A DNA stretch of 25,575 nucleotides. It comes from an uncultured Chthoniobacterales bacterium (GTDB taxonomy: Bacteria > Verrucomicrobiota > Verrucomicrobiia > Chthoniobacterales > SZAS-18). The translations under genes were made by a program, and so were the position numbers. The stretch covers positions 4,909 through 30,483 of the forward strand of contig CAXUFU010000001.1 in assembly GCA_964250275.1 (NCBI GenBank). Reading direction: 5' to 3'. The notes under the pieces are model-generated. The model had not been told where the DNA came from and did no database searches. It saw only the letters and a list, made by a program, of their open reading frames with translations. Positions within the stretch are counted from its first letter, which is position 1. Each line of letters begins with the position of its first letter. This document shows positions 4,037 through 25,575 of the stretch, in pieces.

Positions 4037-4047
4037 GTCCTTGCTGG

Positions 4048-4956
4048 TTAGTTGGCTGAGACGCGTCCTTTGCCTTTCGCCAAGGCTTCATAGCCGGAGA
4101 TCACGTCGAAAAGCTCTTCGTCGATCTTCGCCTGCCGCAAGCGGTGAAAGGTACCGTGGAGCGTCTCCAATAGTTCGTCGATATTTCTCCCGGCGCGTTC
4201 CATCGCCGCCAGGCGGCTGGCATTTTCACTGGCCAACGATTCGGCGCACGCGCGGAATAGCGAGATGAAAAGATACTCGCGAATGTAGGCCCGCAGCGTC
4301 GTGACGTTATCGCGCACGACCTCGGGCAAGTTACGCGTTGGCCAGCGAATCCCGGCGAGACCTTGTTGCCACTGCGCGTCGAGCGGCAACAACCGCTGGC
4401 TCACCGGTTCGTAGAGCGCTCCCGTTTTCGGTCGATTGTGGAAGACGTACAAACTCGCGTATTCGCCTTGCGTCCGCTTGGCTTCGCTCGCGATCTGCAT
4501 TCTGCCAACCAGCGGAGTAATGGCCTGCACAGAGTTTGGCACCGGGAAGGTTCCCATCAACGGCAGGCCTGCGTCCACCAGGCGCGCCTGCACCCGTTCA
4601 CCCACCGCCCACAAATGCGGTTTGCCGGGCAACGCGGCCAGCGTCTGCACCGCAAAATCCGCGACTACCTCGTTGAATTGGCCGACCAGTCCTTGATCGG
4701 AACCGAAGACGATGGCGCCCGTCGCACCGGGCTCGCTTTGGCCCCGAGGTTCTGGCCTGGCAACCATCGGTGCCGTCTCCCTGAAACACGCGCTCAACCC
4801 CAGCTCAACCGTTCGATAATAGTCATTCAACGCCCGCACGGATTGTTCGTATTGGCCGATGCTGGAAGCAGCCAGCGCTTTCATCGTGCGGACGACGGAT
4901 TTGAGTTCGCCCGCACTGTTGATTTTCCGGCTCAGGCTCGCCGTCGTGTCGCTCAT
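4048..4956 (-). CDS. atpG: N-ATPase gamma subunit
   Basis: [14 protein letters not shown] at the N-terminus, [50 protein letters not shown]; ATGA overlap with the atpA stop. Confidence 0.96.
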
Positions 4957-6542
4957 GGTTTCTCCTCGCCCGTGGGTTGCGGCAGAGGTTTGGCCTCGGG
5001 CGTGGTTGGAGCTTGGGGTTGAAAGCGCACCAGCGTCTGACGCGCCATTTCCACCACCGCTTGGCGATCCTCGTCGCTGAGCTTCGGGGCCGAGTCAAAA
5101 CGCGCGGCCAACTCCGCGGGTAGTCTGGTAACACCCTGACGCACAGCGGCCTCGGCTTCTTTCATCTGGACCAGCGGCACCGGGTCGAAGAGTCCCGCGG
5201 TCAAAGCCAATAACACCGTGATTTGCTCGGCGAGCGACTGCGGTTGAGATTCCGGCTGCTTGAGGCAAGCGCGGATTCTTTGTCCGTGCTCGATACTTTT
5301 GCGGGTCCCCTCGTCCAACCGGGCGCCGAAGCGCGCGAAGGTCTCGAGTTCCTCGAACTGCGCGTAAGCGAGCTTGAGATTACCCGCCACGGCGCGGTAA
5401 GCCGCCCGTTGCGCCTTGCCGCCGACGCGTGAAACGGACTTACCGACATCGACCGCTGGCAGCACGCCCAGTTCAAAGAGCGAGGGCGAAAGGTAAATCT
5501 GTCCGTCCGTGATCGAGATCAGGTTGGTCGGGATGTACGCGGAGATATCTTGCGCTTCAGTCTCAATGATGGGTAAGGCCGTGAGCGATCCGCCGCCGCG
5601 ATCCGGCCGCAGATGGGTGGCGCGCTCGAGCAGGCGAGAATGGATGTAGAAAATGTCGCCGGGGAACGCTTCGCGCCCAGGCGGCCTCCGGAGCAGAAGG
5701 GAGATCTCGCGGTAGGCGCGGGCGTGTTGCGTCAGGTCGTCGTAAACGATCAGCACGTCGCGGCCCGCTTCCATAAAATGCTCGGCGATGCTCGTGGCGG
5801 CATAAGGGGCGATGTAGGACAGCCCGGGCGCTTCGTTGCCCTCCGCGACAACAACGACCGTGTAATCCATCGCCCCATTTTCCCGGAAAATAGCCGCCGC
5901 CTTGGCCACGGCGGAAGCGCGCTGGCCGATGGCACAATAGACGCAGAGCACATCTTTTCCGCGCTGGTTGAGGATGGTGTCGATGGCGATTGCCGTCTTG
6001 CCGGTCTGGCGGTCGCCCAGGATCAACTCGCGTTGGCCGCGTCCGATGGGTATGAGCGCATCGATGACTTTGAGTCCCGTCTGGAGCGGCGCGGTGACAG
6101 CCGCTCGCGCGATGATGGCCGCGGAAGGCCGCTCGGTCGGCAAACGCTCGCGAGCGGCGACCGGACCTTTGCCATCGAGCGGCCGGCCGAGCGGGTCGAT
6201 GATGCGTCCCAGTAACCCATCGCCCACGGCCACGTCCATGACCCGGCCCGTCCGCTCGACTTCATCGCCCGCGTGCAGAGCCGCATCTTCGCCGAGCAGG
6301 ACCACGCCGATCTCGTCTTCGTCCAGGTTGAAGACGATGCCGAAGACGCCGCCGGGAAACCTCACCAGCTCCTCAAAGCCCACGTTCGGTAGACCCGAAA
6401 CCATCGCGATGCCGGTGCCGACACTGGTGATCGTGCCTACCTCACGCGGCGTCAGTTGCGGCAGGAAAGCTTCTCGCGCTTGGCGCAGGGCCGCAAACGT
6501 CCCGTCGTACACGCTCGCGAGGTTTTCGGCTGCGTCGATCAT
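4953..6542 (-). CDS. atpA: N-ATPase alpha subunit
   Basis: Walker [57 protein letters not shown]. Start reassigned to ATG 6542 (ATGA overlap with the atpF stop). Confidence 0.97.
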
Positions 6543-7360
6543 GAGCCGTTTTTGTCCGAAACCGTCTCTTGGGACGTGGCCTTGGGCGGTCGTGCCGGCG
6601 GATTCTTTGGCTTCAGGAGTTCGTCCACACCGTGCTCCAGCGCTTCGAGATAATCCGCGATGGTCCAAGCGACTTTTTGCCCGTTGGTGGTGAGTTCGAT
6701 GCCGCTGACCAGCTCGGGCGCGGTCTCAAACCGGAGCGGAATGTCGGCCGAGAAAGTTTCGTTCACCGCGTGCTGGATGGTGGCGCACTGCTCGCCGGAC
6801 AAGGCAAACGCGCTCCGGACCAGCGCGGGATCGGACGCCGACTTCAGCGCGTCGACGAGGCCAGCCTTGCCTTGGCCGTTGAGGGTGCGCAAGCGGCGGG
6901 TGAAAACGTCGGCCATGCTGTCTTCCAGACTCGTGTCGGCAAGATCGGTCAGCGTTTTGCGGGTGATGGCAAACACCTCCTCTTTGGCGCGGCGGCTGAT
7001 GGATTGATCCAGTTGGTTAGCGTCGTTTCGGAAGGCTTCCTGTCTCTTCACCGTCATAGCGTCGGCTGCGCGTCCGGCTTGCTCCAGCAGCCGCTGGCCT
7101 TCGCCTCTTGCCTCCTCCAGCGCCGTGCCGAGCAGGGCGGCGCGCTGCTGGTCGAACTCCTGATTCTTGCGTTGAAACTCGTCGCGCTCCTGCTTGGCTT
7201 CGGCTCTTTTGGCGTCGGCAGCGCTGAGCTCAGCCGCGATTTTATGTTCCCGCGCATCGATCGCGACCAGGATCGGCCGGTAGAGAAAGCGCCGCAGCAA
7301 CCACACCAGGAGCAGGAAGTTCACGGCTTGCGCCCCGACGGTAAACCAGTCGATCAACAT
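6539..7360 (-). CDS. atpF: N-ATPase b subunit with long (delta-like) C-terminal extension
   Basis: [31 protein letters not shown] transmembrane anchor, then coiled coil, then [22 protein letters not shown]. At 273 aa it fits the extended N-ATPase b subunit; there is no separate atpH in the operon. Confidence 0.93.
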
Positions 7361-7364
7361 GAGA

Positions 7365-7646
7365 TTATTTGCCGCCGGATTGCGCGATGACGTGGCTCCA
7401 GAATGGATTGGCGAAAATCAGGATCATCGACACCACGAAGCAGTAGATGGCCAGTGATTCGATCATCGCCAGACCGACGAATAAGGTGCGCGTGATGGTG
7501 GCAGAGGCGTCCGGCTGCTGGGCCAAGGCCGTCAGTGCGGTGGCGACCGATCGGCCTTCGCCGAGTGCCGGCCCGATACTGCCGATGGCGATCGTCAGAC
7601 CCGCGGTTAAAATCGAGGCCACCGCAATGATTGTCATGTTGTCCAT
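7365..7646 (-). CDS. atpE: N-ATPase c subunit (two-glutamate type)
   Basis: Two hydrophobic helices, GPALGE(30)GR, loop QQPD, LAMIE(63)SLAIY(68). Confidence 0.97.
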   Translation of the reverse strand: MDNMTIIAVASILTAGLTIAIGSIGPALGEGRSVATALTALAQQPDASATITRTLFVGLAMIESLAIYCFVVSMILIFANPFWSHVIAQSGGK

Positions 7647-7683
7647 AGTTGTTGGTTCCGTTGCGTCGTCGTTTGTTTGTTTG
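7647..7683 (-). promoter_or_regulatory. A/C-rich, SD-less leader of atpE; possible translational enhancer
   Basis: Sense strand reads CAAACAAACAAACGACGACGCAACGGAACCAACAACT-ATG, with (CAAA)x3 and one U. The function is inferred. Confidence 0.35.
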
Positions 7684-8361
7684 TCAGATGCTGGGCTGGC
7701 GCGTGCGAGTGGCGGCAGCGATGTAAACCGTGGCCAGAATGCTAAAGATGTAGGCCTGGACCATGCCGGTGAGCAGACCGAGCAACGTCATGACGATGGG
7801 AAAGATAAAGGGCGTAATCGTCAAGAGGATGCCGATGATCATTGTTCCACTCATCATGTTGCCAAAGAGGCGGACAGACAGCGCCAGGGTGCGCGAAAGC
7901 TCGCTCACGACATTAAACGGCAGCATGATCACCGTCGGCTCCAGATAGGACTTCAGGTAGCCGCCGAGACCTTGATCTTCGATGCCGAAAAGCGGCACAG
8001 CCACGAACACGCAGAGCGCGAGGGCCACCGTGGTGGAGAGCGAACCCGTCGGCGGCTGATAGCCGGGGATGACCGTGCCGCAGCACGCCAGCGCGACGAA
8101 CAGGAAAAGCGTGCCCAGGAAATTGAGGTATTTTTTCGCATCCACTAAACCGACGTCCTCGATTTGTTTTAGCATTGCCGTCACAATCATCTCCAAGAAG
8201 TTCTGCCAGCGGGAACGGGTCAGTTCGGTCGAGAGCCGGCGGGTGATCAGTTTCGCGCCGATCACCAGCACGAGCATCAGTCCCCAGGTGAATACGATGG
8301 TGCCGTTGAGCTTAACGAACCCATCCTGCCACAAGATCGTCTGATCGGAGCTAAGGTGCAT
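7684..8361 (-). CDS. atpB: N-ATPase a subunit
   Basis: Multiple TM helices, PPTGSLSTT.ALALCVF, MLPFNVVSELSRTLALSVRLFGNM with the conserved stator Arg, GMVQAYIFSILATVY. SD GGAGG. Confidence 0.97.
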   Translation of the reverse strand: MHLSSDQTILWQDGFVKLNGTIVFTWGLMLVLVIGAKLITRRLSTELTRSRWQNFLEMIVTAMLKQIEDVGLVDAKKYLNFLGTLFLFVALACCGTVIPGYQPPTGSLSTTVALALCVFVAVPLFGIEDQGLGGYLKSYLEPTVIMLPFNVVSELSRTLALSVRLFGNMMSGTMIIGILLTITPFIFPIVMTLLGLLTGMVQAYIFSILATVYIAAATRTRQPSI

Positions 8362-8641
8362 GGGCGGCCTCCAGTCCGGGCCGCGTCAGGTAGGTCACGC
8401 ACCATCGCGCCACCACGAATCCCAGGAGGCACGCCACCAGTCGCTCCCAATTCCCGCGGCCGACATAGTAGAAGCCCGCCAGCACAACGCTCATCCGCAC
8501 GAGTAAGCTGCCCAGGAACCATAAGGCGGGCTGGGCAGACGCGATGCCCTCGCGCACCGTCCACCACAGGCCGCCGAAGAAGATCGCACCCAGCATTGCG
8601 CCCACCAACCCAGCGATGACCAATCCTAGAGTCTCATTCAT
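8351..8641 (-). CDS. atpR: N-ATPase-specific membrane subunit AtpR
   Basis: FFGGLWWTV..., WFLGSLLVRM, GFVVARW, with two Arg in TM segments. Start reassigned to ATG 8641 (SD GGAGG; overlaps the atpQ stop). Confidence 0.88.
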   Translation of the reverse strand: MNETLGLVIAGLVGAMLGAIFFGGLWWTVREGIASAQPALWFLGSLLVRMSVVLAGFYYVGRGNWERLVACLLGFVVARWCVTYLTRPGLEAAHAP

Positions 8642-8967
8642 CTTTAACCCCTCCGTCTGCGTGCATGGCCCGGTTTTCGTTGGCGACCCAACGCCAGGCG
8701 TTGAAACAACCAAGCGCGAGGCCAACGACCAGGAGCGCCAGAGTCCACGAATGCGGGCCTGGATAGCGCTTGTCCAACCAGACGCCGAGCCCCGCCCCGA
8801 GCAGCGTCGGAATGGCCACCGACCAGCCGATCAGGCCCATCATGCCCAATCCGAACCAGACGCCTGGCACGCCGTCTCGCCGCGCCTTGAGCTTGCGCGC
8901 CGCCTGCCGCGCGATCTTGCCGGCGAAGGACCTCTCGTCGTCTGACGAGCTCTTGGCTGCTGTCTCG

Positions 8968-8975
<8 letters not shown>
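8634..8975 (-). CDS. atpQ: N-ATPase AtpQ (AtpZ/AtpI-like)
   Basis: RKLKARR...VWFGLGMMGLIGWSVAIPTLLGAGLGVWLD..YP..SWTLALLVVGLALGCFNAWRWV. Start reassigned to ATG 8975. Confidence 0.9.
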
Positions 8976-11583
<2,608 letters not shown>

Positions 11584-11631
11584 CTCGTTACAGGGTCCCC
11601 GGGCTAGCACCGCGCTGGGTTGCCTTGGTGC

Positions 11632-14043
11632 TCACTGCGAGGCCGTCCACTTCCAGTTGCGGATCTCCGGCATGTCCTCGCCGTTCTTATCGATGTATTG
11701 CCGGTGCTCGATCAACTTGTCTTCGAGCTGTTGCTTCAAATAGATCCCCTTCTCGCCGGTTTGCGGCACGCGATCGATCGTATCCAGGACCAGGTGAAAA
11801 CGATCCAGATCGTTTAACACGGTCATGTCGAATGGGGTCGTGATGGTCCCTTCTTCCTTGTAGCCGCGCACGTGCATATTATGATGGTTGGTGCGCCGGT
11901 ACGTCAGCCGGTGGATCAGCCATGGGTAAGCGTGAAAGGCAAAGATGATGGGCTTATCCTTGGTGAAGAGCTCGTCGAAATCCACCTCGCTCAACCCGTG
12001 CGGGTGCTCGCTTTTGGGTTGCAGCTTCATCAGGTCGACGACGTTGACCACCCGGATCTTCAGCTCCGGCAAGTGTTCGCGCATGATCGAAACCGCGGCG
12101 AGCGTCTCCAGCGTCGGCACGTCGCCACAGCAGGCCATGACCACATCGGGCGCGGCATCCTGATCGTTACTGGCCCATTGCCAGATACCGATGCCTTCGG
12201 CGCAATGCTTGGCCGCGGCTTCCATCGTCAGCCAATACGGGGCCGGATGTTTGCCCGCGACGACGACGTTCACGTAATGGCGGCTGCGCAGACAATGGTC
12301 CATCACCGAGAGCAAACAATTCGCGTCCGGCGGCAGGTAAACGCGGACCACCGCGGCCTTCTTATTTACCACGTGGTCAAGGAACCCCGGATCCTGGTGG
12401 GTAAAGCCGTTGTGGTCCTGACGCCAGACATGCGAAGCCAGTAGATAATTGAGCGAGGCGATCTTCCGCCGCCAAGGCAGACGCGCAGTCACCTTCAGCC
12501 ACTTGGCGTGCTGATTGAACATCGAGTCGACGATGTGAATGAAAGCCTCATAACAGTTAAAGAGGCCGTGCCGCCCGGTGAGCAGGTAACCCTCCAGCCA
12601 ACCCTCGCATTGATGCTCGCTCAACATCTCCATGACACGGCCGGCCGGCGCGAGAAATTCGTCGTTCGGGACGGTGGCGGCATCCCATTGCCGTTGGGTC
12701 ACCTGGAAGAGAGCCTCCAAGCCATTGGATATCGTCTCGTCCGGGCCAAAGACCCGGAAGTTACGCTGCTCTTCGTTTTGCTTGGCTACGTCGCGCAGAA
12801 AAGGCCCGAGGACATGCGTGTCCCCGATCCCGCCCGTCCCGGGTTCTGGAACATCAACGCCATAGTCGCGGAAATCCGGCAGGCGCAGATCCTTGAGCAG
12901 CAAGCCGCCGTTTGCGTGAGGATTCGCTCCCATGCGCCGCGTGCCTTGCGGAGCCAGATCGGCCAGCTCCGGCAACAAGCGGCCATCGGCGTCAAAGAGT
13001 TCCTCCGGTCGATAGCTCTTTAGCCAATCTTCCAACTGCTTGAGGTGCTCGGGATGGGTCGCCGGATCAGAAAGCGGCACCTGGTGCGCGCGGAAGGTGC
13101 CTTCGATTTGGCGGCCATCGACGAGCTTGGGCCCGGTCCAGCCTTTGGGCGAGTTCAGGACGATCATTGGCCAACGCGGCCGCATGGTGTTGCCGTTGAG
13201 CCGTGCGTCCCGTTGGATCTGCTGGATCTGCTCGATGGCTTTGTCCAAGGTCCCGGCCATCGCCTGATGCATGCGGGCCGGCTCATGACCTTCCACAAAG
13301 TACGGCGTCCAACCGTAACCACGCAGCAGTTGATCCAGCTCTTCGTGGGTAATGCGCGCGAGGATGGTGGGATTGGAGATCTTATAGCCGTTGAGATGCA
13401 GGATGGGTAACACCGCGCCATCGGTTTTCGCGTCCAGGAACTTGTTAGAATGCCACGCGGTGGCCAGCGGCCCGGTTTCCGCCTCACCATCGCCAACGAC
13501 GCAGGCGACGATCAGGTCCGGATTATCGAACACCGCTCCAAAGGAATGGCTCAGCGAGTAGCCCAGTTCGCCTCCTTCATGAATGGACCCGGGCGTTTCC
13601 GGCGAGGCGTGGCTGGGGATGCCGCCGGGAAAGGAGAACTGGAGAAACAGCTTGCGCAGCCCGGCTTCATCCTGGCTGATGTCCGGGTACACCTCGCTGT
13701 AAGTACCTTCCAGGTAAGTGTTTGCCACCGCCGCTGGTCCGCCGTGCCCCGGGCCGGACACGTAGATCATGTTGAGATCATACGCTTTGATCACCCGGTT
13801 CAGGTGTGCGTAGATGAAGTTCTGGCCTGGCGTGGTGCCCCAGTGTCCTAACAACATATGCTTTACATCCGCGAGGGTCAGCGGGCGCTTGAGCAGAGGG
13901 TTGTCAAAGAGATAGATCTGGCCGACAGACAGATAGTTGGCCGCGCGCCAATACGCGTCGATCTTACGGAGTAACCCACCTGAGAGTGGGCCGCCGTCCA
14001 ACGTCTCGGGCTTTTTTTCGTCGATCTTGAGGTCGGGTTCCAT
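11632..14043 (-). CDS. xfp: Phosphoketolase (xylulose-5-P / fructose-6-P), ThDP-dependent
   Basis: [31 protein letters not shown]...[38 protein letters not shown] are all intact. X5P versus F6P specificity cannot be told from the sequence by eye. Confidence 0.96.
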
Positions 14044-14088
14044 AAGTGCGTTCGCCAGGGTTGTTCGTCGGACGCTCCTGCTTTTAGA

Positions 14089-14571
14089 TCAACTTTTCTG
14101 CTCGAGCTCGGCCACTTTGGCCAGACGGCGGCAATGCCGTTCCGCGCCACTAAACCGCGCGGTCATAAATGTCCGGACGAGCTCCCAGGCAAGAGCCTGG
14201 CCCACGACACGGCCTCCGAGGCAGATCATGTTCAGGTTATCGTCCTCCACGCCTTGATGCGCCGAAAACGTTTCGTGGATCAAGCAGGCTCGCACGCCCG
14301 CCACTTTATTGGCGGCCACGGATGCTCCGACGCCGCTGCCGCAAATAGCTACCCCGCGCTGCACTTCGCCGGCGGCGACCGCCCGGGCTAGCGGCACGAC
14401 AAAGTCTGGATAATCATCATCCGGTTGAGCGTGGACATCGCCAAAATCGATGACTTCATGGCCATGCTCGCGCAGTGCCGTGCCAAGAAATTCCTTTAGC
14501 TCGTAACCGCCGTGGTCCGCGGCAATTCCCACACGTTCGCGCTCGCTTTGTCCTGGCAGCTGGGTGCTCAT
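14089..14571 (-). CDS. rpiB: Ribose-5-phosphate isomerase B (RpiB/LacAB family)
   Basis: GIAADHGG, DDYPDF, ICGSGVGASVAANKVAGVRA, NMICLGGR, ERHCRRLAKV. Confidence 0.93.
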   Translation of the reverse strand: MSTQLPGQSERERVGIAADHGGYELKEFLGTALREHGHEVIDFGDVHAQPDDDYPDFVVPLARAVAAGEVQRGVAICGSGVGASVAANKVAGVRACLIHETFSAHQGVEDDNLNMICLGGRVVGQALAWELVRTFMTARFSGAERHCRRLAKVAELEQKS

Positions 14572-14595
14572 AAAGGTTAGTGCAACAGAGTGACT

Positions 14596-15843: not shown

Positions 15844-15859
15844 GAGAAATCGCGCTGTA

Positions 15860-15957: not shown

Positions 15958-15961
15958 GGCT

Positions 15962-16705
15962 TTACCGGTCGGAGAATAGAGAGTGCCCGGAAGCTTCCGG
16001 CGGCGTGGCGCGCGGCGGGATTTCCGCCGGCGTATAGTGATACTCGCGCGAGACCTGGATGACGTCCTTCGAAGCGTGCACGGCAATATTAGCCTCCTCA
16101 TAACTGATGCGGTCGACTTCCGCCGTTGCCAGGATGATTTCCTTGCCGCCAAACCATGCTCCTGTCTCTCCCAGCAGGTAGTGGATCGTCCATGTCTTTT
16201 CATCGATCAGAAAATCCGTCAGGTGGCCGAGCACGTCCTCCCCGTTTTGGATGCGGTAGCCGCGCAACGCCTGCGCGCTGCGAAGATCAGGATCATTAGG
16301 ACCCTGGCTCGGCGGAGGCGCGAGCGGGATCGGCATCGGTGCGGTCATCGGATAGACACCCAGCCCCCAGACGGCGCCTTCGTTCCAGTAATTTGAGTAA
16401 CCGTAGTGACGGCAATACTCCTCTTCTTGTTGCCGCGAGACTGGCTTGTGCTTGTCGATGGACGGACTCTGCTCGATCTGTGCACGAGTCAAGTTGACGA
16501 GCAGTTGGTCGCCCTCGTGGAAAAACTGCGTGAACGCCGCCGGCGACAGCAGCACCAATCTTTCCGACAACCAGGAACCCGTGTCAGCGACCACGTAGCG
16601 GACGATCCAATCTTGATCGGTAAAGAGAAAGTCCTTTACGTGGCCGATACGGCCATCCGCCGCAGCCAGTTTGGCGCCATAAAACGGCTTCAGGTTGCGC
16701 AGCAC
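15962..16705 (-). CDS. Tandem PRC-barrel domain protein
   Basis: Two similar units (GAKLAAADGRIGHVKDFLFTDQDWIVRYVVADTGSWL and GYRIQNGEDVLGHLTDFLIDEKTWTIHYLLGETGAWF) separated by a Pro-rich linker. GTG start. Confidence 0.85.
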   Translation of the reverse strand: MLRNLKPFYGAKLAAADGRIGHVKDFLFTDQDWIVRYVVADTGSWLSERLVLLSPAAFTQFFHEGDQLLVNLTRAQIEQSPSIDKHKPVSRQQEEEYCRHYGYSNYWNEGAVWGLGVYPMTAPMPIPLAPPPSQGPNDPDLRSAQALRGYRIQNGEDVLGHLTDFLIDEKTWTIHYLLGETGAWFGGKEIILATAEVDRISYEEANIAVHASKDVIQVSREYHYTPAEIPPRATPPEASGHSLFSDR

Positions 16706-16927
16706 GGACGGGCGGGACGGCTGGTGCGGTGCTGGCGGGAGCGAGGCTGCTCGAGTTATTCATAGCTTTGACTTCTGGTGCAGCGGGAGCTAGGCGGCGC
16801 TCGCCGAGCGGGATGTTAGATGCGAAGAGTAGCATCGACACGCCTCGCCCCGGCAGCCAATACCTCGTAGGGCGGCCCCGCCATAGCTGGAAGGTATCGG
16901 GCCACGAGCAGCCGAGGCTCGTCGCGC

Positions 16928-19900
16928 TCAGCGGACTTTCATTTCGACGGTGTGCTCCTGGTGATCGTCCCGCAGGGGAACGGTTTGTCCGGTCAGATTT
17001 TGACCGTCGAGGGAAAGGGAAGGACCATCGGTCGCATCCTCCGGCAGGCGGCTAAAGGTGATATGGTAAACCGTCTGCCGGAAGCGATAATGGATTTTGC
17101 AAGAAGGCCACGCTTTCGGCAAACGCGGATGCAACCGCAGTTGATCGCCCTCGAGATTGACCCCCAAAAGAGTTTCCACGAGCAACCGGTACATCCAACC
17201 TGCTGAACCCGTGTACCAGGTCCAGCCGCCGCGTCCCGTGTGCGGAGTTACCCCGTAGACATCCGCGGCAACGACATAAGGTTCTACCTTGTAGACCGCG
17301 ATCTGCTCCGGAGTGGCGCTGTGGTGGACGGGATTTAGGAGCGAGAAAAGTTCCCACGCACGCTCGGTGTCCCCCAGCAGAGCAAAGGCCGTCACGGTCC
17401 AGATCGCGCCGTGCGTGTATTGGCCGCCGTTTTCTCGTACTCCCGGGATGTACCCTTTGATGTATCCGGGATTAAGGGCGGACTTGTCGAAGGGCGGGTC
17501 GAACAACGCAATCAAGCCGGCGTCGCGCCGGACCAGGCGCTGATCCACGGACTGCATTGCCTGGCGTGAGCGGGCGGGATCGCCGGCGCCGCTGATGACA
17601 GACCAACTCTGCGGCAGCGAATCGATCTGGCATTCCGGGTTCGTCTGCGAGCCGAGCGGTTCGCCGTCGTCAAAGTAGGCGCGCCGGTACCAGGCGCCAT
17701 CCCACGTGTGAGCTTCGATATTTTCCTTGAGCGTGCGCGCCTCGGCCCGGCAAAGCTCCGCAAAGGCGGCGTCTTGGCGGGACTGCGCCAACCGGCTGAA
17801 TTGGGTCAGCACATCGTAGAGGAAAAACGCCAGCCACACGCTCTCGCCGCGCCCTGCCTGGCCGACGAGGTTCATGCCGTCGTTCCAATCTCCGCCGCCC
17901 ATCAACGGCAGGCCGTGTGCGCCAAAGGTCAGACCGTGCTTGATGGCACGCACGCAATGTTGGTAGAGCGTGGCCGACTCTTCCGAGCGATTCGGCAGGT
18001 CATAATAGGACTCCTCCTCCGGCTTGACCAGGCGAGCTTCCAGGAACGAAATGTTTTCGTCGAGCACCCCAGTGTCCCCCAGGCAAGCGACATAGCGGCA
18101 GGTAACATACGGCAGCCACAGATAGTCATCGGAAATATGGGTGCGCACACCGCGACCCAAAGGCGGGTGCCACCAATGTTGCACGTCCCCTTCGCGAAAT
18201 TGCCGGGAGGCAGCCCGCAGCAGATGCTCGCGCGTCAGCGCCGGTTCGGCATGGACCAGAGCCATGACATCTTGTAACTGGTCCCGGAAGCCGTACGCGC
18301 CGCCGGATTGGTAGAACCCGGTCCGGCCCCAGAACCGGCAACTCAAGACCTGGTACAACAGCCAGCCGTTGGCCAGCACGTTCACCGCCGGGTCAGGCGT
18401 ATCCACGTTGACCGCACCAAGTGCGCGGTTCCAATACTGCCACACGCCTTCAAGCGCCACGCGGCTCGCGTCCACCCCGCGGAAGCGCCGCACGAGGTCG
18501 TGCACATCTTCCAGGTTGCGCCCGACCCCGAGGCGAAATCTCGTTTCCCGTTCCTCTTCGACGGCCAGGTCGAACACCACCTGCACCGCGCCGCAAGGAT
18601 CCAACCCCGCCCCGACCTTGCCCGAAAGCCGCGTCCGTTTCAGCGCCGCCGGCTCCGCCAGGGTCCCGTTGCGACCGAGAAATTCCCGGCGGTCGCCGGT
18701 GACGCTCCGCGATGGGTCGCCGGTGTCGATGAAAGCAATACGGTCCGGGAACTCGGTGTTGTAGTAGTTGCGAGCCAGCAAGGCGCCGCTCTTGAGATCC
18801 ACTTCAGTCTGCACGTGGAGCAGACTTTTCTGCCGCAAATCGCCCAAGACCCACTCCCAATAGCCGGTAGCCGAGAGGCGTCGTGGCCGCCCGGAAACGT
18901 TACGCAGTTTGAGCACGTTAAATTTCACCGGCGCATCCATGGCCACGTAGATCCATAACTCCGAGGCAATGCCGTTTTCGCAATGCTCAAACACCGTGTA
19001 GCCGAAGCCGTGGCGGATGACGTAGGGCGTGGCGCCGCGAGCCGGCAAGGGCGTCGGCGACCACACTTGCCCCGTCACCTCGTCGCGAATGTAAAAGGCT
19101 TCCCCGGTTGTGTCCTGGACGGGATCGTTGCTCCAGGGCGTCAGCCGAAACTCGTGCGAGTTCTCGACCCAAGTATAAGCCGAGCCGCTTTCGGAAACGA
19201 CCGTGCCGAAGGTTGGGTTTGCCAGCACGTTTACCCAGGGCGCGGGGGTCGTCTGCCCGGGTTGCAACGTGATGACATACTCGTGGCCGTCGCGGGTAAA
19301 GCCGCCGAGGCCGTTCTGAAAGATCGTCTCGCGCGCTTCCAATGGTCTCGGCGTCTCGCGACCTAGAGACCGGGCGGGCGTGAACGTGGGCACGAGCGGC
19401 TCCAGAATACTGCGCACCGCCATTTGCTCGGCCAGAGTGCCCCGCTCATCGTCGACGGCGATCCGCGCCACGGATTGCAGCAGGACCCGGTCTTCGTGGG
19501 GAATCTGTTCGAGCCGGCAGACGAAGATGCCCCCGGGTTTATCCAGCAGTTGTGCTTCTGTGCCGGCGGCAATCAAACTCGTGATCTGGTCGTACAAAGG
19601 CTGGCGGTAAACCGAAACGTCTTCATTGAGAATGACCAGCTCGACCGTTAGCCCCTTCAGTCGCCAATAAGCGTGCGCTTGCACGAGTTGGCGGACGATT
19701 TCGATCTTGGCGACGTCCTGGATACGCAGCAGGACCACCGGCGCATCGCCGGAAACGCCGTAACTCCAAAGACCGCTTTGGCCACGCCGATTGCTGCGCA
19801 AAATCGACGAGTCCGCGCGCCGGGCGGGATTGGCGTAGATGAGCGCGCCCGCGATCCGGTCGTAGAGTTGCGCGTCCATCTCGGTGGCGTTGAGTTGGCG

Positions 19901-22900
19901 CAGCGTGACCTGGCTATGGGTCCAGGCCAGGTCGAAGGCGCGTTCCGTCATGCGCACGCTTTGATATTTTTCCACCTGCGCCATGGCCGCTTCCCGCGTC
20001 TCGGCGGCGCCCAAGACCAAATTGATAATGGCGGTCCCGTGCGGCGGTAAAGAGACCGTCCGCCGCAGCGACACAATCGGGTCGAGCACCGAGCCCGTGG
20101 TGCCCGATAGCGGAGCAATGCCTTGCATCACGGCTGGCGCGGCCAAGGTTCGGGCGCGTCCGATGAATTTCGCCCGGTCAGTTTCGCACGAGATGTCTCC
20201 GAGTCCCTCACCTTGCTGACCCACCAACAGGTGAAGCAACCAGGGCGGCTTTTCCTCTTGCGTCCGCGCCCGGCGCGTACAGAGAATGGCGCTGCATTTG
20301 CGGTCGAACTCCGTCTGCACAAACAGGTCGCTGAAGGCAGGATGCGCCGCGTCCGCGGCCGGCGGCGCCAGCACGACTTCCGCGTAGCTGGTCAGTTCGA
20401 TCTCGCGCGCCACACTGGCCCGGTTGGTCAACGTAATGCGCCGCAACTCGACGTCGTCTTCCGGGGACACGCTGATCTCGGTGTGCACCTCGATGTCGGC
20501 CTGACACTGGCGAAATTCCGCGCGCGCCTGCGAGAAGATCGCTTCGTACCCCTCTGACGCCTTTAGGGTGGGCTGATAAGACGTCGACCAAAACTCTCCC
20601 GTGGCCAGGTCGCGCAGGTAAACAAACGTGCCCCAGTTGTCCAGGGTTGCATCTTCGCGCCAACGCGTGAGCGCCAGATCTCCCCACCGGCTATAGCCGC
20701 CGCCGGCGCTGGTGATCACGACATGGTAATGGCCGTTCGACAGAAGATGAACATCGGGTGCAGGCGGAGTTGGGTTGGTAAACACGCGCATCCTGCTTTC
20801 GTTTTCACTGGCCAGCGTGCGCGATGACTCCGGCGCCGCATCCTGGGTGAAGACGCTGGCCATGGCCTTGGGCACCCGCTCCTGCAAGAGCAAGTCGGCC
20901 GCTTTCAGCAAGGGACAGCCAAGGAAGCGCCGCTGCATGGGATAATCATGCAAGACGTTCGCCACCGCCAGCAGGCTCATTCCTTGGTGATGCGCCATGT
21001 AGGAGCGGATGACCGCGCTCTTTTCGCCGGGTGGCAAGCGCGAGGGCGTGTAATCGATGGCTTCGTAGAAACCGAAGGCGCCTTCGCGCTTTTCGGCGGC
21101 CAAACGTTCCAGATTCGCGCAGGCCGCGGCGGGGGCAACCATTAACGCCATGGCCGAAGCGTAAGGAGCGATCACCACATCCTCCGCCAACCCTCGTTTG
21201 AGTCCCAGGCCCGGCACACCGAAGGCCCGGTATTGATAGTTCAGGTGCACGTCGGTCCGGTTGTAGCCTGATTCCGAGATTCCCCAAGGCACGCCCAGTG
21301 ACTTACCGTATTCGATCTGCCGTCGCACCGCCGCTTTACACGTGTGATCGAGCAGGGTGCCTTGGTAGTTCGGCATGACCAAGACCGGCATCAGGTACTC
21401 GAACATCGAACCACTCCAGGACACCAGGATCGGCTCCGCGCGCGCAGAAACCAGGAGCCGCCCGAGCGAAAACCAATGCTCCTGCGGAACCTGGCCGAGG
21501 GCGATGGCGACATAGCTGCATAAACGCGCCTCGGACGCCAGCAAATCATAGAACCCGCTGTCCCGGCGGAGATCAGCGACGTTGAACCCGGTGACAAACA
21601 GTTCTCTTTGCTGGTCGAATAAAAACGAAAAGTCCATGGCAGCCAGGGTGTCGCTTTCCTGGGCCAAGGCTTCCAGAGTCAACAGGCGTGCGTGCGCTTG
21701 CGCGCCAGCTTCCTGCATGCAGTGCGCCAGTTCGGTGAGATAGACCTGCCGCTGCTTTCGCACTTCAACCGGTTCGTCCGGGAGATCGTGCCAGGCTTGT
21801 TCGATCAAGGGAGAGAGCGAGGTCACGAGCTTTTCCAGCCCGCGGAGGGTCAGCGGCTCATCCAATTTCGCTAGCTCAACCTCGAGCGGCTGCGGCCCCT
21901 TTCCGGCTGGCTTCGCCAGCGTTAACCAAGGCGCCAGCAGTTTAGCCTCGGCCAGGTGTTCGTCGCACATGCGCTGCAAAGCCTGCGCCCAGCCTTTGAC
22001 CTCCACGCCATCGTTTGCCGCGGCGGTTGTCAGCTCCACGGCGACTGCCGTCACCTGGCTCAGAAGGGCGAACGACTCTCGCCGGCTTGCGATCGGCTGC
22101 TGGAGGCTGGCGCTAAGACTCGCGAGCTTAGCGTCGTGCGGCTTGAGTTCTAACAGGATGGCTACCGTGTCACGCAGGGCCGCCAAGATGGGTGGGGCGA
22201 AGAGTTCTGCTTCGGCCTGTTCTCTCAAGCCGGAGGAGAGTGTGAGTAAGTGCCCGGCCAGGTTCCCGCTGTCCACGCTCGAGACGTAAAGCGGCAGGAG
22301 CGGCTCGAGTGTGCGCGTGTCATACCAATTGTAAAAGTGGCCGCGATACCGCTGGAGCCGCTGCATGGTGGCGAGAGTGTCTTGCGTGCGACGGATCAGG
22401 CCGCCCACGGAGAGATAGCCGCAGTCGAGCGCGGCGAGATTGGCGAGCAAAGCCAGACCCATGATTGTCGGCGACGTCCGGGACGCAATGGTCGCAGCGG
22501 GGACTTCCTGGAAGTTGTCCGGAGGCAACCAGTGCTCCTGGGCCGTGACAAAGGTTTCGAAGAAGTACCAGGTCTTGCGCGCGGTGCGTTTGAGCAGAGC
22601 TAACTGGTCCGGCGTCCAATCCGGCGTGAGAGATTCGATGGGCTGACTGATCCACCAGGCGATCCAGGGAGCAGCCAACCACAGCCCGAGAAAGGGCAAG
22701 GCTTGCAGGGCATTAGCCGGCTGCCAGGCGAGCAACACGGCCGCGCTCACCACGGCCACGATCGGCGCGCTCCACATCGTCGCGTAAAAGCCCGCCAAGT
22801 CTGCTCGCGGCGTCCGTTCGGACTCACTCGAGGTTTGCCATTCGAGCAGCCGTTTATGCGTAAAGAGCATGCGCACGAGGGTCCGGCCGATCGCGTCGGC

Positions 22901-25575
22901 GCTGATGAAAGCGTCGTAGGGCAAAAACGTGAGGGCCAAGCAGACCTGACCCAACTGCCGTCCGCACGCACTGGCCGCTCCGCGCAGGTGCATGGTCCAC
23001 GGCAGATCGGCCGGTTTCCTCCAGAGCCCCACGAGGGCCGATAACAGCCCGGGTAGCGCGATGAGACCAAAGACCAGGAGCGATCCCAAGTACCCGAGTG
23101 TGGGTGCCAAGAGCCAGGCACCCAAGGTAAACAAAACCAAGGCCATCGGGACCAGGCTGCGCCGCACGTTATCGAAGATCTTCCAGCGCGAGAGACCCGA
23201 AAGCGGATTGGCACCGCGACTGGCGTCGGAGCCGGGAACCCGCGTAAACTGCCAATCGCCGCGCATCCAGCGGTGCCGCCGGGCCACATCCACGTTGTAG
23301 CGCGAGGGATGCTCTTCATAAAACTCTACGTCGCTGACCAGGGCCGAACGCGCGTAACATGCTTCCAATAAGTCGTGGCTAAGCACCGTGTTCTCCGGGA
23401 AACGGCCGGCCATGGCGCGCTCGAAAGCGTCGACATCATAGATGCCCTTGCCGATGAATGAGCCTTCCTGGAAAAGGTCCTGGTAAACGTCGGACACTGC
23501 CCGCGTGTAGGGATCGATCCCGGCGTCGCCCGCCAGCAGCCGGACAAACCACGATCGCCGGGCACTCGGCAAGCTGACGCCCAGCCGCGGTTGCAGAATG
23601 CTATAGCCTGCCGTCACGAGGCCGCGCGCCGCATCGAACTTGGGGCGATTCAACCGGTGCGCCATCGTCCCCACCAGGCGCCGGGCGGCGTCCCGCGGAA
23701 GTTCCGTATCGGTGTCGAGCGTGATGACATATTTGATCCCTTGCAGCAGGGCCAGATCACCGAGGATGGTCGAGAAGCAATCCCGGGAACCGCCGCGCAA
23801 AAGAGCGTTGAACTCCGCGAGCTTGCCGCGCTTGCGTTCGTAGCCCATCCAGCGGTCTTCGGCGGCGTTCCAGCGGCGAGGACGATGGAACAAACAGAAG
23901 AGACTCTTGCCCCCGGCCGCATATTTGCGGTTGAGCATCTCGACTCCGGCCACCGCGCGCTGCAGCAACCCCGCGTCTTGCGGCAGGCTCTCTGCCGCCG
24001 CGTCGCGGAAGTCGGTCAGCAAACCGAACTGGAGGTGCGGACCGCGATTGCCGAGATGATGGATCTCCAAGCTTTCAATCAGCCGATCGACGCCGGCGAG
24101 ACTCGTTAGCATCGTCGGCACAACTACCATCGTGCTGCCCTCGACGGGTATGCCGGCGGCATAATTCATCCGGGGCAAGGGCTGCGGTTTCACCAACAGC
24201 GTGGAAAGCCAGTTCAGCAGCGCCACCGCCAGTTGGCTGGCGCAAAGCACAAACGCCAGCGTGCAGAGAAGCAATCTCCAGCCCGCCACCTGGAACATCT
24301 GGGACTCCCGCACAAACCCCAACGTGAATAGCAAGGTCAGCAGGCCGATGCCGCCCACATAGAAGGTTAAGGGAAAGCGGTGGATGCCGCGGGCCAGCAG
24401 CGTGCGGGCGGGCCAATGCACCTCCGCGTCGCGTCCCAGGATGGCGTGTCCCTTATCGACGAGGTAAAAGCCGACGTGCGCCATCCGATCCTCGCGTCCT
24501 TTTTGGCCGGCGCTTTCGCCCGCCAGTTTGATCGCGCGGCGGGCGATATCCACTTCCGAGACCCGGCTATAGCGGGCGAGTGACTCAACGGAGTGGCGGT
24601 AGCGATCGCGCGTGGCAAAGTCCATCGCCCGATAAATGCCGGCTGGATCCAACCTGAGTGTCTCCTCGACCGCGCTCAAAGACTCGACAAATTCCTTCCA
24701 GTCCGTGGCGCTCAGAAAACGCAGGCTCGCGATGCTGTGGCTGACGGAAACGCGGTCGGCGGCTTGGTTTTGGCTTTCCTGCTGGACCAGCTCATCGATG
24801 GACAACCCTTGCTGGACCAGGCGCTGTTCCAGCCAGGTGCGCGCCAGGTGCGAGACGGGACTCTGCCGTGACAAACGCTGGCACACCTCCGCGACGAACG
24901 AACTGGAAAAAGGCAGGTCGGCTCTCGCCATATCCGCCACGACCAGAACCAGATGGGAGGGGTTTTGCTCGGCCATCTCCTGCAGACGGTCGGCCCAGAG
25001 GTTCGCCACCTCGCGATCCTCCTTGGCGAGAATCAGCCGGGTAGCCACGCGCTGCAGATTCTCGATCAACGCCAGGCGCAGCATGATGGGGATCGCCCAG
25101 AGCTCGCCCAGGCGCAAAGAGCTGACGGTTTGATAAGCCGCGATGAAGGCGTTGAGCGGCCCGGCATCGATCTGCGCGTCCACGTGCGAGATCAATTCCA
25201 GGACGATGTCATACACGCGCGGCAACCCGGCAGAAGGACCCTGCAACAGGTGCGGCAGTTCCCGGCTATAACCCCGGGGCAGATGGCGCCTGGCCATCTG
25301 GATCTGCTCTTCGATCAGGTAAAAGTTATCGAGCAGCCACTCGCCGGCGGGACTGATGCGCTGATCCGGATTAGCCGCCAGCGCGGCGCGATTATAAGTG
25401 CGCAGACTCAGCTCGTTGGCGTCGAGCCGGGCCAGGAGCGGGTTAGCGGCTTTTTGCGTCGCGATCTGGTGTTTGGCCGCCAGTTCACTGGCATGGCGGG
25501 CGAGTTGTTCGGGGCTGAATAACTCGGCACGCAGCGGCGGCGCGCTGGCGAGAGGCCGCGATCTGACGATAGGAG
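16928..25575 (-). CDS. cgs: Cyclic beta-1,2-glucan synthase (GT84 + GH189-like cyclase + GH94 phosphorylase), 5'-partial, >2880 aa
   Basis: The frame stays open from 25297 to the window edge (PPLRAELFSPEQLARHA...PAGEWLLDNFYLIEEQIQMARRHLP), so the start is outside the window. GT part: MGYERKRGKL, TLDTDT, SFIGKGIYDV, SHDLLE, RRHRW. Then TM helices. Middle domain: YDLLASEARL, SWSGSMFEYLMP, PWGISES, MAHHQGM. GH94 part: GFRDQLQD, GDWNDGMN, RENGGQYTH, WYTGSAGW. Also called ndvB/chvB. Confidence 0.95.
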   Translation of the reverse strand, partial: PIVRSRPLASAPPLRAELFSPEQLARHASELAAKHQIATQKAANPLLARLDANELSLRTYNRAALAANPDQRISPAGEWLLDNFYLIEEQIQMARRHLPRGYSRELPHLLQGPSAGLPRVYDIVLELISHVDAQIDAGPLNAFIAAYQTVSSLRLGELWAIPIMLRLALIENLQRVATRLILAKEDREVANLWADRLQEMAEQNPSHLVLVVADMARADLPFSSSFVAEVCQRLSRQSPVSHLARTWLEQRLVQQGLSIDELVQQESQNQAADRVSVSHSIASLRFLSATDWKEFVESLSAVEETLRLDPAGIYRAMDFATRDRYRHSVESLARYSRVSEVDIARRAIKLAGESAGQKGREDRMAHVGFYLVDKGHAILGRDAEVHWPARTLLARGIHRFPLTFYVGGIGLLTLLFTLGFVRESQMFQVAGWRLLLCTLAFVLCASQLAVALLNWLSTLLVKPQPLPRMNYAAGIPVEGSTMVVVPTMLTSLAGVDRLIESLEIHHLGNRGPHLQFGLLTDFRDAAAESLPQDAGLLQRAVAGVEMLNRKYAAGGKSLFCLFHRPRRWNAAEDRWMGYERKRGKLAEFNALLRGGSRDCFSTILGDLALLQGIKYVITLDTDTELPRDAARRLVGTMAHRLNRPKFDAARGLVTAGYSILQPRLGVSLPSARRSWFVRLLAGDAGIDPYTRAVSDVYQDLFQEGSFIGKGIYDVDAFERAMAGRFPENTVLSHDLLEACYARSALVSDVEFYEEHPSRYNVDVARRHRWMRGDWQFTRVPGSDASRGANPLSGLSRWKIFDNVRRSLVPMALVLFTLGAWLLAPTLGYLGSLLVFGLIALPGLLSALVGLWRKPADLPWTMHLRGAASACGRQLGQVCLALTFLPYDAFISADAIGRTLVRMLFTHKRLLEWQTSSESERTPRADLAGFYATMWSAPIVAVVSAAVLLAWQPANALQALPFLGLWLAAPWIAWWISQPIESLTPDWTPDQLALLKRTARKTWYFFETFVTAQEHWLPPDNFQEVPAATIASRTSPTIMGLALLANLAALDCGYLSVGGLIRRTQDTLATMQRLQRYRGHFYNWYDTRTLEPLLPLYVSSVDSGNLAGHLLTLSSGLREQAEAELFAPPILAALRDTVAILLELKPHDAKLASLSASLQQPIASRRESFALLSQVTAVAVELTTAAANDGVEVKGWAQALQRMCDEHLAEAKLLAPWLTLAKPAGKGPQPLEVELAKLDEPLTLRGLEKLVTSLSPLIEQAWHDLPDEPVEVRKQRQVYLTELAHCMQEAGAQAHARLLTLEALAQESDTLAAMDFSFLFDQQRELFVTGFNVADLRRDSGFYDLLASEARLCSYVAIALGQVPQEHWFSLGRLLVSARAEPILVSWSGSMFEYLMPVLVMPNYQGTLLDHTCKAAVRRQIEYGKSLGVPWGISESGYNRTDVHLNYQYRAFGVPGLGLKRGLAEDVVIAPYASAMALMVAPAAACANLERLAAEKREGAFGFYEAIDYTPSRLPPGEKSAVIRSYMAHHQGMSLLAVANVLHDYPMQRRFLGCPLLKAADLLLQERVPKAMASVFTQDAAPESSRTLASENESRMRVFTNPTPPAPDVHLLSNGHYHVVITSAGGGYSRWGDLALTRWREDATLDNWGTFVYLRDLATGEFWSTSYQPTLKASEGYEAIFSQARAEFRQCQADIEVHTEISVSPEDDVELRRITLTNRASVAREIELTSYAEVVLAPPAADAAHPAFSDLFVQTEFDRKCSAILCTRRARTQEEKPPWLLHLLVGQQGEGLGDISCETDRAKFIGRARTLAAPAVMQGIAPLSGTTGSVLDPIVSLRRTVSLPPHGTAIINLVLGAAETREAAMAQVEKYQSVRMTERAFDLAWTHSQVTLRQLNATEMDAQLYDRIAGALIYANPARRADSSILRSNRRGQSGLWSYGVSGDAPVVLLRIQDVAKIEIVRQLVQAHAYWRLKGLTVELVILNEDVSVYRQPLYDQITSLIAAGTEAQLLDKPGGIFVCRLEQIPHEDRVLLQSVARIAVDDERGTLAEQMAVRSILEPLVPTFTPARSLGRETPRPLEARETIFQNGLGGFTRDGHEYVITLQPGQTTPAPWVNVLANPTFGTVVSESGSAYTWVENSHEFRLTPWSNDPVQDTTGEAFYIRDEVTGQVWSPTPLPARGATPYVIRHGFGYTVFEHCENGIASELWIYVAMDAPVKFNVLKLRNVSGRPRRLSATGYWEWVLGDLRQKSLLHVQTEVDLKSGALLARNYYNTEFPDRIAFIDTGDPSRSVTGDRREFLGRNGTLAEPAALKRTRLSGKVGAGLDPCGAVQVVFDLAVEEERETRFRLGVGRNLEDVHDLVRRFRGVDASRVALEGVWQYWNRALGAVNVDTPDPAVNVLANGWLLYQVLSCRFWGRTGFYQSGGAYGFRDQLQDVMALVHAEPALTREHLLRAASRQFREGDVQHWWHPPLGRGVRTHISDDYLWLPYVTCRYVACLGDTGVLDENISFLEARLVKPEEESYYDLPNRSEESATLYQHCVRAIKHGLTFGAHGLPLMGGGDWNDGMNLVGQAGRGESVWLAFFLYDVLTQFSRLAQSRQDAAFAELCRAEARTLKENIEAHTWDGAWYRRAYFDDGEPLGSQTNPECQIDSLPQSWSVISGAGDPARSRQAMQSVDQRLVRRDAGLIALFDPPFDKSALNPGYIKGYIPGVRENGGQYTHGAIWTVTAFALLGDTERAWELFSLLNPVHHSATPEQIAVYKVEPYVVAADVYGVTPHTGRGGWTWYTGSAGWMYRLLVETLLGVNLEGDQLRLHPRLPKAWPSCKIHYRFRQTVYHITFSRLPEDATDGPSLSLDGQNLTGQTVPLRDDHQEHTVEMKVR

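Follow-up and report, generated by a model that had tools for sequence, protein, structure and literature searches.

A phosphoketolase and a PgmH-like mutase gene adjoin an N-type ATPase operon in a Chthoniobacterales genome: a candidate link between sugar-phosphate ATP formation and ion pumping

N-type ATPases (N-ATPases) always accompany a housekeeping rotary ATPase as a second enzyme, and their operons are laterally mobile (Dibrova, Galperin and Mulkidjanian, 2010; PMC2881411). The c subunit of the Burkholderia pseudomallei N-ATPase (E30/E61/T62/M63/Y66) is H+-binding and forms a c17 ring (Schulz et al., 2017; PMC5376962), and the enzyme has been proposed to be an ATP-driven H+ pump (PMC5376962). 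Here we analyse a stretch of 25,575 nucleotides (the window; contig CAXUFU010000001.1, positions 4,909 to 30,483, or G000:C1:4909-30483) from an uncultured Chthoniobacterales bacterium, in which an N-ATPase operon is preceded on the same strand by genes for a phosphoketolase (xfp), a predicted mutase of the HAD-IIB family, and four further proteins including a cyclic beta-1,2-glucan synthase (Cgs). The window belongs to a metagenome-assembled genome (MAG) of 3.14 Mb in 561 contigs, which is 85% complete.

The operon closely resembles the N-ATPases described by Dibrova and colleagues and that of B. pseudomallei. It follows the gene order that defines the family, atpD-C-Q-R-B-E-F-A-G, it encodes both AtpR and AtpQ, and its AtpD falls in the alternate F1F0 beta clade (TIGR03305, 865.5 bits; cut-off 752). 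As in those systems, the c subunit carries a pair of carboxylates, AtpF is a b subunit of the long type and a separate delta gene is absent from the operon; AtpF (273 aa) shows a weak OSCP match at residues 178-242 (E 3.6e-4, below the cut-off). A housekeeping F-ATPase is likewise encoded elsewhere in the genome, with its alpha and beta subunits (47% identical) on contig C203 and an a subunit on C288. H+ is the likelier ion for this enzyme, because its AtpE site resembles that of the B. pseudomallei H+ ring and Leu takes the place of the Thr that retains structural water in Na+ sites. Compared with the described N-ATPases (PMC2881411, PMC5376962), the operon in the window has two additional genes on its upstream side, one for a phosphoketolase and a translationally coupled one for a PMM/PgmH-type mutase, neighbours of which these founding papers make no mention.

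Fifteen consecutive minus-strand genes make up the run, in the order cgs, PRC-barrel gene, M50 (site-2 protease, S2P) gene, rpiB, xfp, HAD-IIB and atpDCQRBEFAG (Table 1). An earlier note, made from the letters of the window, had assigned these identities and had described five gaps followed mostly by overlapping genes with no clear intrinsic terminator between them. Pfam and NCBIfam profiles bore out the identities. Gene starts were refined against the calls on a near-identical ENA contig (ERZ25067493:ctg160546; 98.7% identity over 17.6 kb, gene order unchanged, ending inside cgs) before the gaps were measured, and the spacing then agreed exactly: 222, 118, 24, 45 and 48 nt from cgs to the HAD gene, followed by -4 (GTGA), -11, -8, -8, -11, +37, +4, -4 (ATGA) and -4 nt. 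The intergenic gaps of the run contained no terminator-like hairpin, again as claimed; the scan as a whole returned 17 such hairpins, which is not above chance (13.4 +/- 3.5 in shuffles).

The junction between the two halves of the run is tight. The HAD stop codon overlaps the atpD start as GTGA in both the window and the ENA contig, an SD-like (Shine-Dalgarno-like) GGAGAGG lies just 5' of the atpD start, and tblastn coordinates indicate a HAD/atpD stop/start overlap also in the planctomycete locus L040. Owing to this overlap, the HAD gene is effectively the first cistron of the atp operon. The order HAD-xfp-rpiB-S2P-PRC-cgs was confirmed in close relatives by contigs of three other studies (X1, X3 and X4).

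An AtpR-profile scan of all species genomes gave at least 567 relatives, of which the best 80 loci were kept; they represent about 15 phylum-level groups. Genes were counted on the 56 of these 80 loci with at least 3 kb of sequence upstream of atpD. XFP was present in 21 of the 56 (38%), spread over eight phylum-level groups, and the XFP open reading frames (ORFs) showed a marked polarity, with 25 of 26 located upstream and 25 of 26 on the operon's strand. Unbiased clustering of the flanking ORFs of all 80 loci returned XFP as the top non-atp family (26 loci), followed by P-type cation ATPase (14), PPK2 (10), STAS (8), class I aldolase (8) and transaldolase (6), and further by GH130, glycogen phosphorylase, DUF2254 and PRC barrel (5 each) and RpiB, acetate kinase and classical PGM (4 each). 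At least one sugar-phosphate or ATP gene (XFP, AckA, HAD, PGM, GlgP, GH130, Cgs, TAL, FBA, RpiB or PPK2) was found in 34 of the 56 loci (61%).

The chance level for XFP was judged from its frequency in genomes and from the polarity of the link. A sample of 400 genomes from the window's phylum has XFP in 7.5% of its members, and AtpR was found in 10 of 400 genomes in the phylum-wide sample. Within that sample XFP was carried by 5 of 9 N-ATPase-positive genomes and by 25 of 391 negative ones (Fisher p = 1.7e-4), a result that is indicative only, because kin are not independent. The earlier note had predicted enrichment of its module genes near N-ATPase operons across phyla. This is clear for xfp. 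The remaining window genes recur in part: the HAD gene in 4 of the 56 loci, with two family relatives in addition, the PRC barrel in 4, RpiB in 3 (L031, L053 and L081), AckA in 7 and Cgs in three lineages, while a homologue of the M50 protease was present in 0 of the 80 surveyed loci.

On a tree of AtpD, the XFP label requires 13 changes, at least six of them forced by well-supported branches, against about 16 for random labels. The link has thus been gained or lost on many occasions and was not inherited as a single block. The tree topology also does not follow taxonomy, and the island's proteins are 75-89% identical across phyla. Together with the lateral mobility of N-ATPase operons (PMC2881411), these two observations could suggest that the adjacency is meaningless and that unrelated accessory genes are simply co-carried by horizontal transfer. 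We regard this as highly improbable, given that the association was formed or lost so many times, that its polarity is fixed, that it includes start/stop overlaps, that it draws repeatedly on one coherent pathway, and that XFP is enriched genome-wide in N-ATPase carriers even where the two are non-adjacent.

The closest described counterpart of the phosphoketolase is SeXPK of Synechococcus elongatus PCC 7942, which gave the best PDB match (8IO8, 1175 bits). Lu et al. (2023; PMC10365998) defined an ATP-inhibition motif of phosphoketolase, PWX2HX3YRX7HXRX31R; the window XFP matches it exactly at all eight residues, starting at residue 707, and inhibition by ATP is therefore predicted for this enzyme from the motif. 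Ten of 17 N-ATPase-linked XFPs carry it. As cited in that paper, the SeXPK-acetate kinase (AckA) pathway helps cells to survive dark, anoxic and osmotic stress (Chuang and Liao, 2021). By this account the two systems share the XFP type, the full motif and a proposed supply of ATP when respiration or photosynthesis fails. They differ in that the S. elongatus pathway is not known to have a dedicated ATP-consuming pump genetically attached, whereas the xfp run in the window ends in an ion-pumping ATPase but is without ackA. In Pseudomonas aeruginosa, the phosphoketolase PA3613 and the P-type ATPase PA1429 are both listed as induced by low oxygen (PMC8575079).

We consider it somewhat more probable than the reverse that the window is one lineage's version of a widespread, horizontally shuffled island that combines redox-neutral, respiration-independent ATP formation from sugar phosphates with an ATP-driven ion pump. 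In such a system, falling ATP would relieve the inhibition of XFP, which would split fructose-6-phosphate (F6P) or xylulose-5-phosphate to give acetyl-phosphate. Acetate kinase, whose gene lies within the island of relatives (G001, G190, L035, L061, L075, L105, L119 and L120) and was not found in this incomplete MAG, would turn acetyl-phosphate into ATP. The N-ATPase would hydrolyse that ATP and expel H+, so that membrane potential and pH could be held when respiration cannot hold them, and the mutase would channel hexose-1-phosphate from a glycoside phosphorylase towards F6P. The oxidative step from glucose-6-phosphate (G6P) to pentose phosphate, which the earlier note had included, is not needed: F6P is itself a possible substrate of XFP, and transaldolase, class I aldolase and RpiB, which recur as neighbours, are the carbon shufflers of an established non-oxidative phosphoketolase cycle. 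Three published findings agree with the proposed mechanism: the survival role of SeXPK-AckA, the low-oxygen induction of PA3613 and PA1429, and the ATP-driven proton pump proposed for B. pseudomallei.

The direction in which the N-ATPase works is central to this proposal. P-type ATPases are obligate ATP consumers and cannot make ATP. Their presence in the same place in sibling islands is the strongest argument that the N-ATPase may likewise serve as a pump, and by analogy it favours a pump over a synthase. A possible alternative, to which we give clearly less weight, is an island of stress or dormancy genes under common regulation but not serially coupled. XFP/AckA and the N-ATPase would both be switched on in cells short of energy or oxygen and would act in parallel, and the N-ATPase, with a large c-ring, may synthesise ATP at low proton-motive force instead of consuming the ATP that XFP yields. 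Other stress and dormancy genes do recur at these loci, namely PPK2, STAS, superoxide dismutase, a CLC channel and, inserted between atpA and atpG, HPF with a baeRF-like gene. The composition of the island is mosaic, with genes often gained and lost, and a c17 ring, with its high ion/ATP ratio (PMC5376962), would also favour synthesis at low proton-motive force. Such a parallel arrangement fits poorly with the replacement of the N-ATPase by P-type ATPases in sibling islands, with the operon-like contact of XFP and mutase genes with atpD through 4-nt overlaps, which goes beyond mere proximity, and with the upstream, same-strand position of 25 of the 26 XFP genes.

Several observations weigh against an island that couples ATP formation serially to pumping. 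The 80 loci were those with AtpR closest to the query and are not a random sample, and in the sample referred to both as the phylum and as the Pseudomonadota sample, xfp was adjacent in one of eight usable N-ATPase loci. No acetate kinase gene was found in the window, as the earlier note had already reported, or in the 85%-complete assembly; a PTA_PTB domain is present on contig C271 of the same assembly. A sigma-70 promoter scan of the window gave nothing above chance and no recognisable promoter, the FixK/FNR box TTGA-N6-TCAA had no match, and matches to the EcfG-type GGAAC-N15-18-CGTT were confined to the plus strand within genes; a look through RNA runs found none that contains the stretch. 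The operation of the N-ATPase as an ATP-driven pump is itself inferred by analogy. In the same-genus genome G001 (OY969764.1), the N-ATPase operon is preceded by ackA and a 3' cgs remnant, and xfp lies 1.1 Mb away. Finally, the mutase may be dispensable and losable at little cost, because its gene has a premature TAG in this assembly and an independent TGA in locus L070.

The HAD protein was the subject of a specific prediction, namely that it is a PgmH/PMM-type mutase, and this part is upheld by its sequence. Its closest solved relative is the alpha-phosphoglucomutase PgmH/APGM of Lactococcus lactis (4BND; E 3.6e-46, residues 1-245 aligned to 2-250, full length), and matches to eukaryotic phosphomannomutases are far weaker (about 1e-14). 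HAD motifs I-IV are kept, including DxDGT, SGG and GDxxxxGGNDYP, and the protein has the size of 4BND. The window HAD and PgmH are thus alike in full-length alignment, conserved motifs and size; they differ in that relatives of the window protein sit between PMI and GH130 and that the window gene is interrupted by an amber codon in this assembly.

This single in-frame TAG lies at 11335-11337. The ENA contig reads CAG (Gln) at the same position, where the gene is intact at 260 aa, and CAG is likewise the codon in contigs of the public runs X1 (about 99% identical) and X4 (about 92%), so that the stop is specific to this assembly or strain. Orthologues carry Lys or Glu at the position. In the verrucomicrobial MAG locus L070 (6393-7124), the HAD orthologue is interrupted by an in-frame TGA, which occupies a Ser codon four codons past the position of the window's TAG, and the same short HAD stretch thus contains two independent nonsense codons.

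The HAD family is large and highly conserved, with more than 100 clusters at 73% identity or above. In a reverse test, we looked up the neighbourhoods of three homologues on long contigs, and all three (3/3) proved to lie in islands of the form (GlgP)-AckA-(PRC)-XFP-(PGI, FBA, PPK2, STAS, HPF)-PMI-HAD-GH130-P-type ATPase. The PMI-HAD-GH130 trio stands directly 5' of atpD in G010 (L010:14919-17774), in L070:5373-7745 and in L074:4815-7713, and GH130 adjoins atpD in at least four further loci (L036, L047, L076 and L110). Among solved structures, this GH130 is closest to beta-1,2-oligomannan and beta-1,2-mannobiose phosphorylases. With PMI and a beta-1,2-mannan-type GH130 as its usual neighbours, the family most likely converts mannose-1-phosphate (Man-1-P) to mannose-6-phosphate, between a mannoside phosphorylase and PMI, rather than acting on glucose-1-phosphate (G1P) as first proposed. 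GH130 was not found in the window's own assembly, and PMI there is a distant homologue only. PMM-type enzymes are often promiscuous, and the HAD protein in the window may act on G1P instead; alternatively the protein may be a relic, in keeping with the amber allele.

The best PDB match of Cgs is the Agrobacterium tumefaciens enzyme (8RF9/8RF0, 2035 bits, nearly full length), the architecture is full-length, and the length and domain order are those of A. tumefaciens Cgs/NdvB/ChvB; by these signs the protein is a genuine synthase. A place beside an N-ATPase operon, as in the window, L049 and L103, does not belong to the known features of Cgs. In L049, a Desulfobacterales MAG, a full-length Cgs gene lies directly 5' of atpD; in the planctomycete L103, the 3' end of cgs is followed by a classical PGM gene and then atpD; and in G001 a frameshifted remnant of the last ~100 cgs codons lies between ackA and atpD (L006/L031). 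Recurrence of Cgs beside the N-ATPase in three lineages is more than chance.

The earlier note had arranged all 15 genes as one functional unit in a linear route: a Cgs glucan reserve, release of G1P by the GH94 domain, conversion to G6P by the HAD protein, then XFP, acetyl-phosphate, ATP and the N-ATPase. The Cgs neighbourhoods just described (adjoining atpD in L049, the Cgs 3' end-PGM-atpD order in L103 and the remnant in G001) speak for it, as does the alpha-phosphoglucomutase identity of the closest solved relative of the HAD protein. In most islands, moreover, the equivalent place is held by the GH130 with beta-1,2-mannan-type phosphorylase kinship, and a beta-1,2-linked polymer that yields hexose-1-phosphate is therefore a recurring theme. 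We nevertheless find the complete route quite unlikely. Cgs consumes UDP-glucose, its known product is a periplasmic cyclic glucan, and its phosphorylase domain is said to control the length of the product and not to be a catabolic enzyme. Since the window Cgs is a synthase of cyclic glucan, it can be regarded as no more than a putative supplier of fuel, and phosphorolysis of beta-1,2-glucan to G1P, which runs opposite to the synthase role, is not supported. A PGM or HAD gene beside cgs could equally serve synthesis (G6P to G1P to UDP-glucose), the M50 protease never recurs, G001 lacks the block, and the 222- and 118-nt gaps may hold promoters. Cgs may contribute either as a source of G1P or through an envelope or osmotic function.

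A bolder form of the emergency-power idea, which we consider doubtful, would unite both polymers. A self-contained unit might phosphorolyse a cytoplasmic beta-1,2-hexose polymer without ATP cost, pass the product through a redox-free phosphoketolase cycle and keep dormant cells energised through a dedicated proton pump, N-ATPase or P-type ATPase. The polymer would be a mannogen-like beta-1,2-mannan (GH130) in most versions and a beta-1,2-glucan made and trimmed by Cgs in the window.

Close relatives document how variable the arrangement is. AtpR occurs in 5 of 41 genomes of the window's family. In G003, PRC...xfp...HAD precedes an N-ATPase operon that has decayed; G010 carries xfp...PMI-HAD-GH130-atpD; and G033 probably has ackA-xfp-...-atpD, spanning contig breaks. 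The N-ATPase of G001 has no adjoining xfp-HAD-PRC-S2P block, and the 15-gene run is consequently not one fixed unit, contrary to the original proposal. On G003 contig C42 (L008/L009), the decayed operon has lost atpD, atpC, atpA and atpG and retains only atpQ, atpR, atpF and parts of atpB and atpE. The PRC...xfp...HAD block upstream of it is preserved intact, and an ackA gene follows 3 kb downstream of the operon. G001 (L006/L031) also contains a 42-aa PPK2 fragment just 3' of atpG; together with the cgs remnant, it is a trace of island rearrangement within the genus.

The window's own genome contains a second, related cluster on contig C29, with xfp2 (frameshifted and without the ATP motif), a class I aldolase and a P-type ATPase. 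This contig (L111:1-12960) reads, on its minus strand, KaiC, KaiB, a PAS histidine kinase with receiver (split), Band7/SPFH, xfp2 in two frames, class I FBP aldolase and the P-type cation ATPase (split). The three frameshifted genes point either to poor assembly there or to a decaying cluster.

The coordinates of the run are given in Table 1. Homologues of the PRC-barrel protein, a recurrent member of the island, stand beside N-ATPase or XFP genes in L035, L061, L063, L081, G003 (L008) and L119. In the 98.7%-identical ENA contig its gene encodes 292 aa, that is, with a 45-aa N-terminal extension; in the window, this extension (16705-16845) is out of frame through a small indel, and the 222-nt gap after cgs is therefore partly former coding sequence. 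An exact-match look-up of the window PRC protein found nothing, and the gene start differs in relatives. The M50 protease is a polytopic membrane protein with intact HEMGH and LDG (QLDGGH) motifs and is specific to this lineage.

Table 1. Features of the N-ATPase run in the window (positions in the window; all on the minus strand)
Feature	Position	Strand	Basis
cgs, cyclic beta-1,2-glucan synthase, 2789 aa from ATG 25297, cyclisation and C-terminal GH94 domains	16928..25297	-	Pfam GH94 supersandwich, GH94 catalytic, Glycoamylase
Tandem PRC-barrel protein, 247 aa from GTG	15962..16705	-	PF05239, 42 bits
M50 (site-2 protease family) membrane metalloprotease	14596..15843	-	PF02163, 85 bits
rpiB, ribose-5-phosphate isomerase B	14089..14571	-	PF02502, 160.8 bits; NF004051, 174.4 bits (cut-off 135)
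xfp, SeXPK-type phosphoketolase	11632..14043	-	XFP_N, XFP, XFP_C; NCBIfam phosphoketolase above cut-off
Predicted PMM/PgmH-type HAD-IIB hexose-1-phosphate mutase, 260 codons, TAG-interrupted	10801..11583	-	PF03332, TIGR01484
atpD, N-ATPase beta subunit, 485 aa from GTG 10804	9347..10804	-	TIGR03305; start same in ENA contig
atpC, epsilon subunit	8968..9357	-	PF02823; start confirmed by ENA contig
atpQ, N-ATPase-specific membrane protein (ATPase_gene1)	8634..8975	-	PF09527; TIGR02230, 135 bits
atpR, N-ATPase-specific subunit	8351..8641	-	PF12966, 94 bits; TIGR03165
atpB, a subunit	7684..8361	-	PF00119
atpE, c subunit, two-carboxylate site E30 ... E63-S64-L65 ... Y68	7365..7646	-	PF00137
atpF, long b subunit, delta-like C-terminus	6539..7360	-	PF00430; sub-threshold OSCP match
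atpA, alpha subunit, 529 aa, ATGA overlap with atpF	4953..6542	-	PF00006, PF00306, PF02874
atpG, gamma subunit	4048..4956	-	PF00231
Weak terminator-like hairpin directly 3' of atpG	3992..4025	-	Consensus scan; sole intergenic one

The contig ends 278 nt upstream of cgs. At the other end, the co-directional run continues past atpG with three further minus-strand ORFs (3551-3895; 2862-3554, Ysc84; 2376-2855). The region 3' of the operon (window 1-4047; L117:13734-20282) encodes a small ORF, a Ysc84-domain protein, a second small ORF, a MetA-pathway-like outer-membrane protein, a DUF6496 protein and a bicupin, and on the longer ENA contig (L117) these are followed by NDH-2 and cytochrome oxidase subunits. 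On the low-coverage ENA contig ERZ25067493:ctg160546 (L116/L117), atpF and atpA are called as a single 803-aa product owing to an indel at the ATGA junction; they are separate in the window.

Between atpA and atpG of N-ATPase operons, a gene pair is interposed in several phyla (L045:14139-15724, L073:12247-13798 and L100:10497-12052; also L056, L058 and L034). It encodes a baeRF family 3 protein (bacterial archaeo-eukaryotic release-factor-like) and a ribosome hibernation factor (S30AE/HPF); HPF homologues, a link to dormancy, occur in 9 of the 80 loci. A CLC-type chloride channel/antiporter with CBS and TPR domains recurs 3' of atpG in L036, L038, L044 and L074, and Fe/Mn superoxide dismutase, VIT-family and BrkB-family genes also recur at a few loci.

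Among known systems, the lxa locus of the obligate aerobe Burkholderia cenocepacia offers an analogy only. It is induced by hypoxia and contains ackA, pta, a cation P-type ATPase and stress proteins (Sass et al., 2013; PMC3721108), and it thus resembles the present islands as a low-oxygen island that joins acetate kinase to a cation P-type ATPase; it differs in that neither phosphoketolase nor N-ATPase is mentioned (PMC3721108). The idea that lxa contains both of these genes was rejected on the same source, which gives ackA, pta and a P-type ATPase only. A literature search returned no paper combining phosphoketolase with N-ATPase or N-type ATPase, and a search for N-ATPase with acetate kinase returned none on their linkage. 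The components are each known; within the literature that could be searched, no account turned up of a link that joins the N-ATPase to phosphoketolase or sugar-phosphate genes, in line with the earlier note, which knew of no description of them as one system.

The physiological role of the N-type ATPase has been open since the family was defined in 2010, with salt extrusion and acid defence proposed on little evidence. The repeated, polar and partly translationally coupled link described here provides a concrete hypothesis, in which the N-ATPase would act as the load on a backup generator, one that works at substrate level and holds the membrane in an energised state once respiration has ceased; the P-type ATPases found in the same position of sibling islands fit this idea. 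To this picture the window adds a first cistron that encodes a PMM/PgmH-type mutase and is translationally coupled, the SeXPK ATP motif and the Cgs variant. The carriers found are mostly uncultured bacteria of soil, peat and sediment from many phyla, and the idea therefore bears on how such organisms may survive anoxic, acidic and dormant periods.

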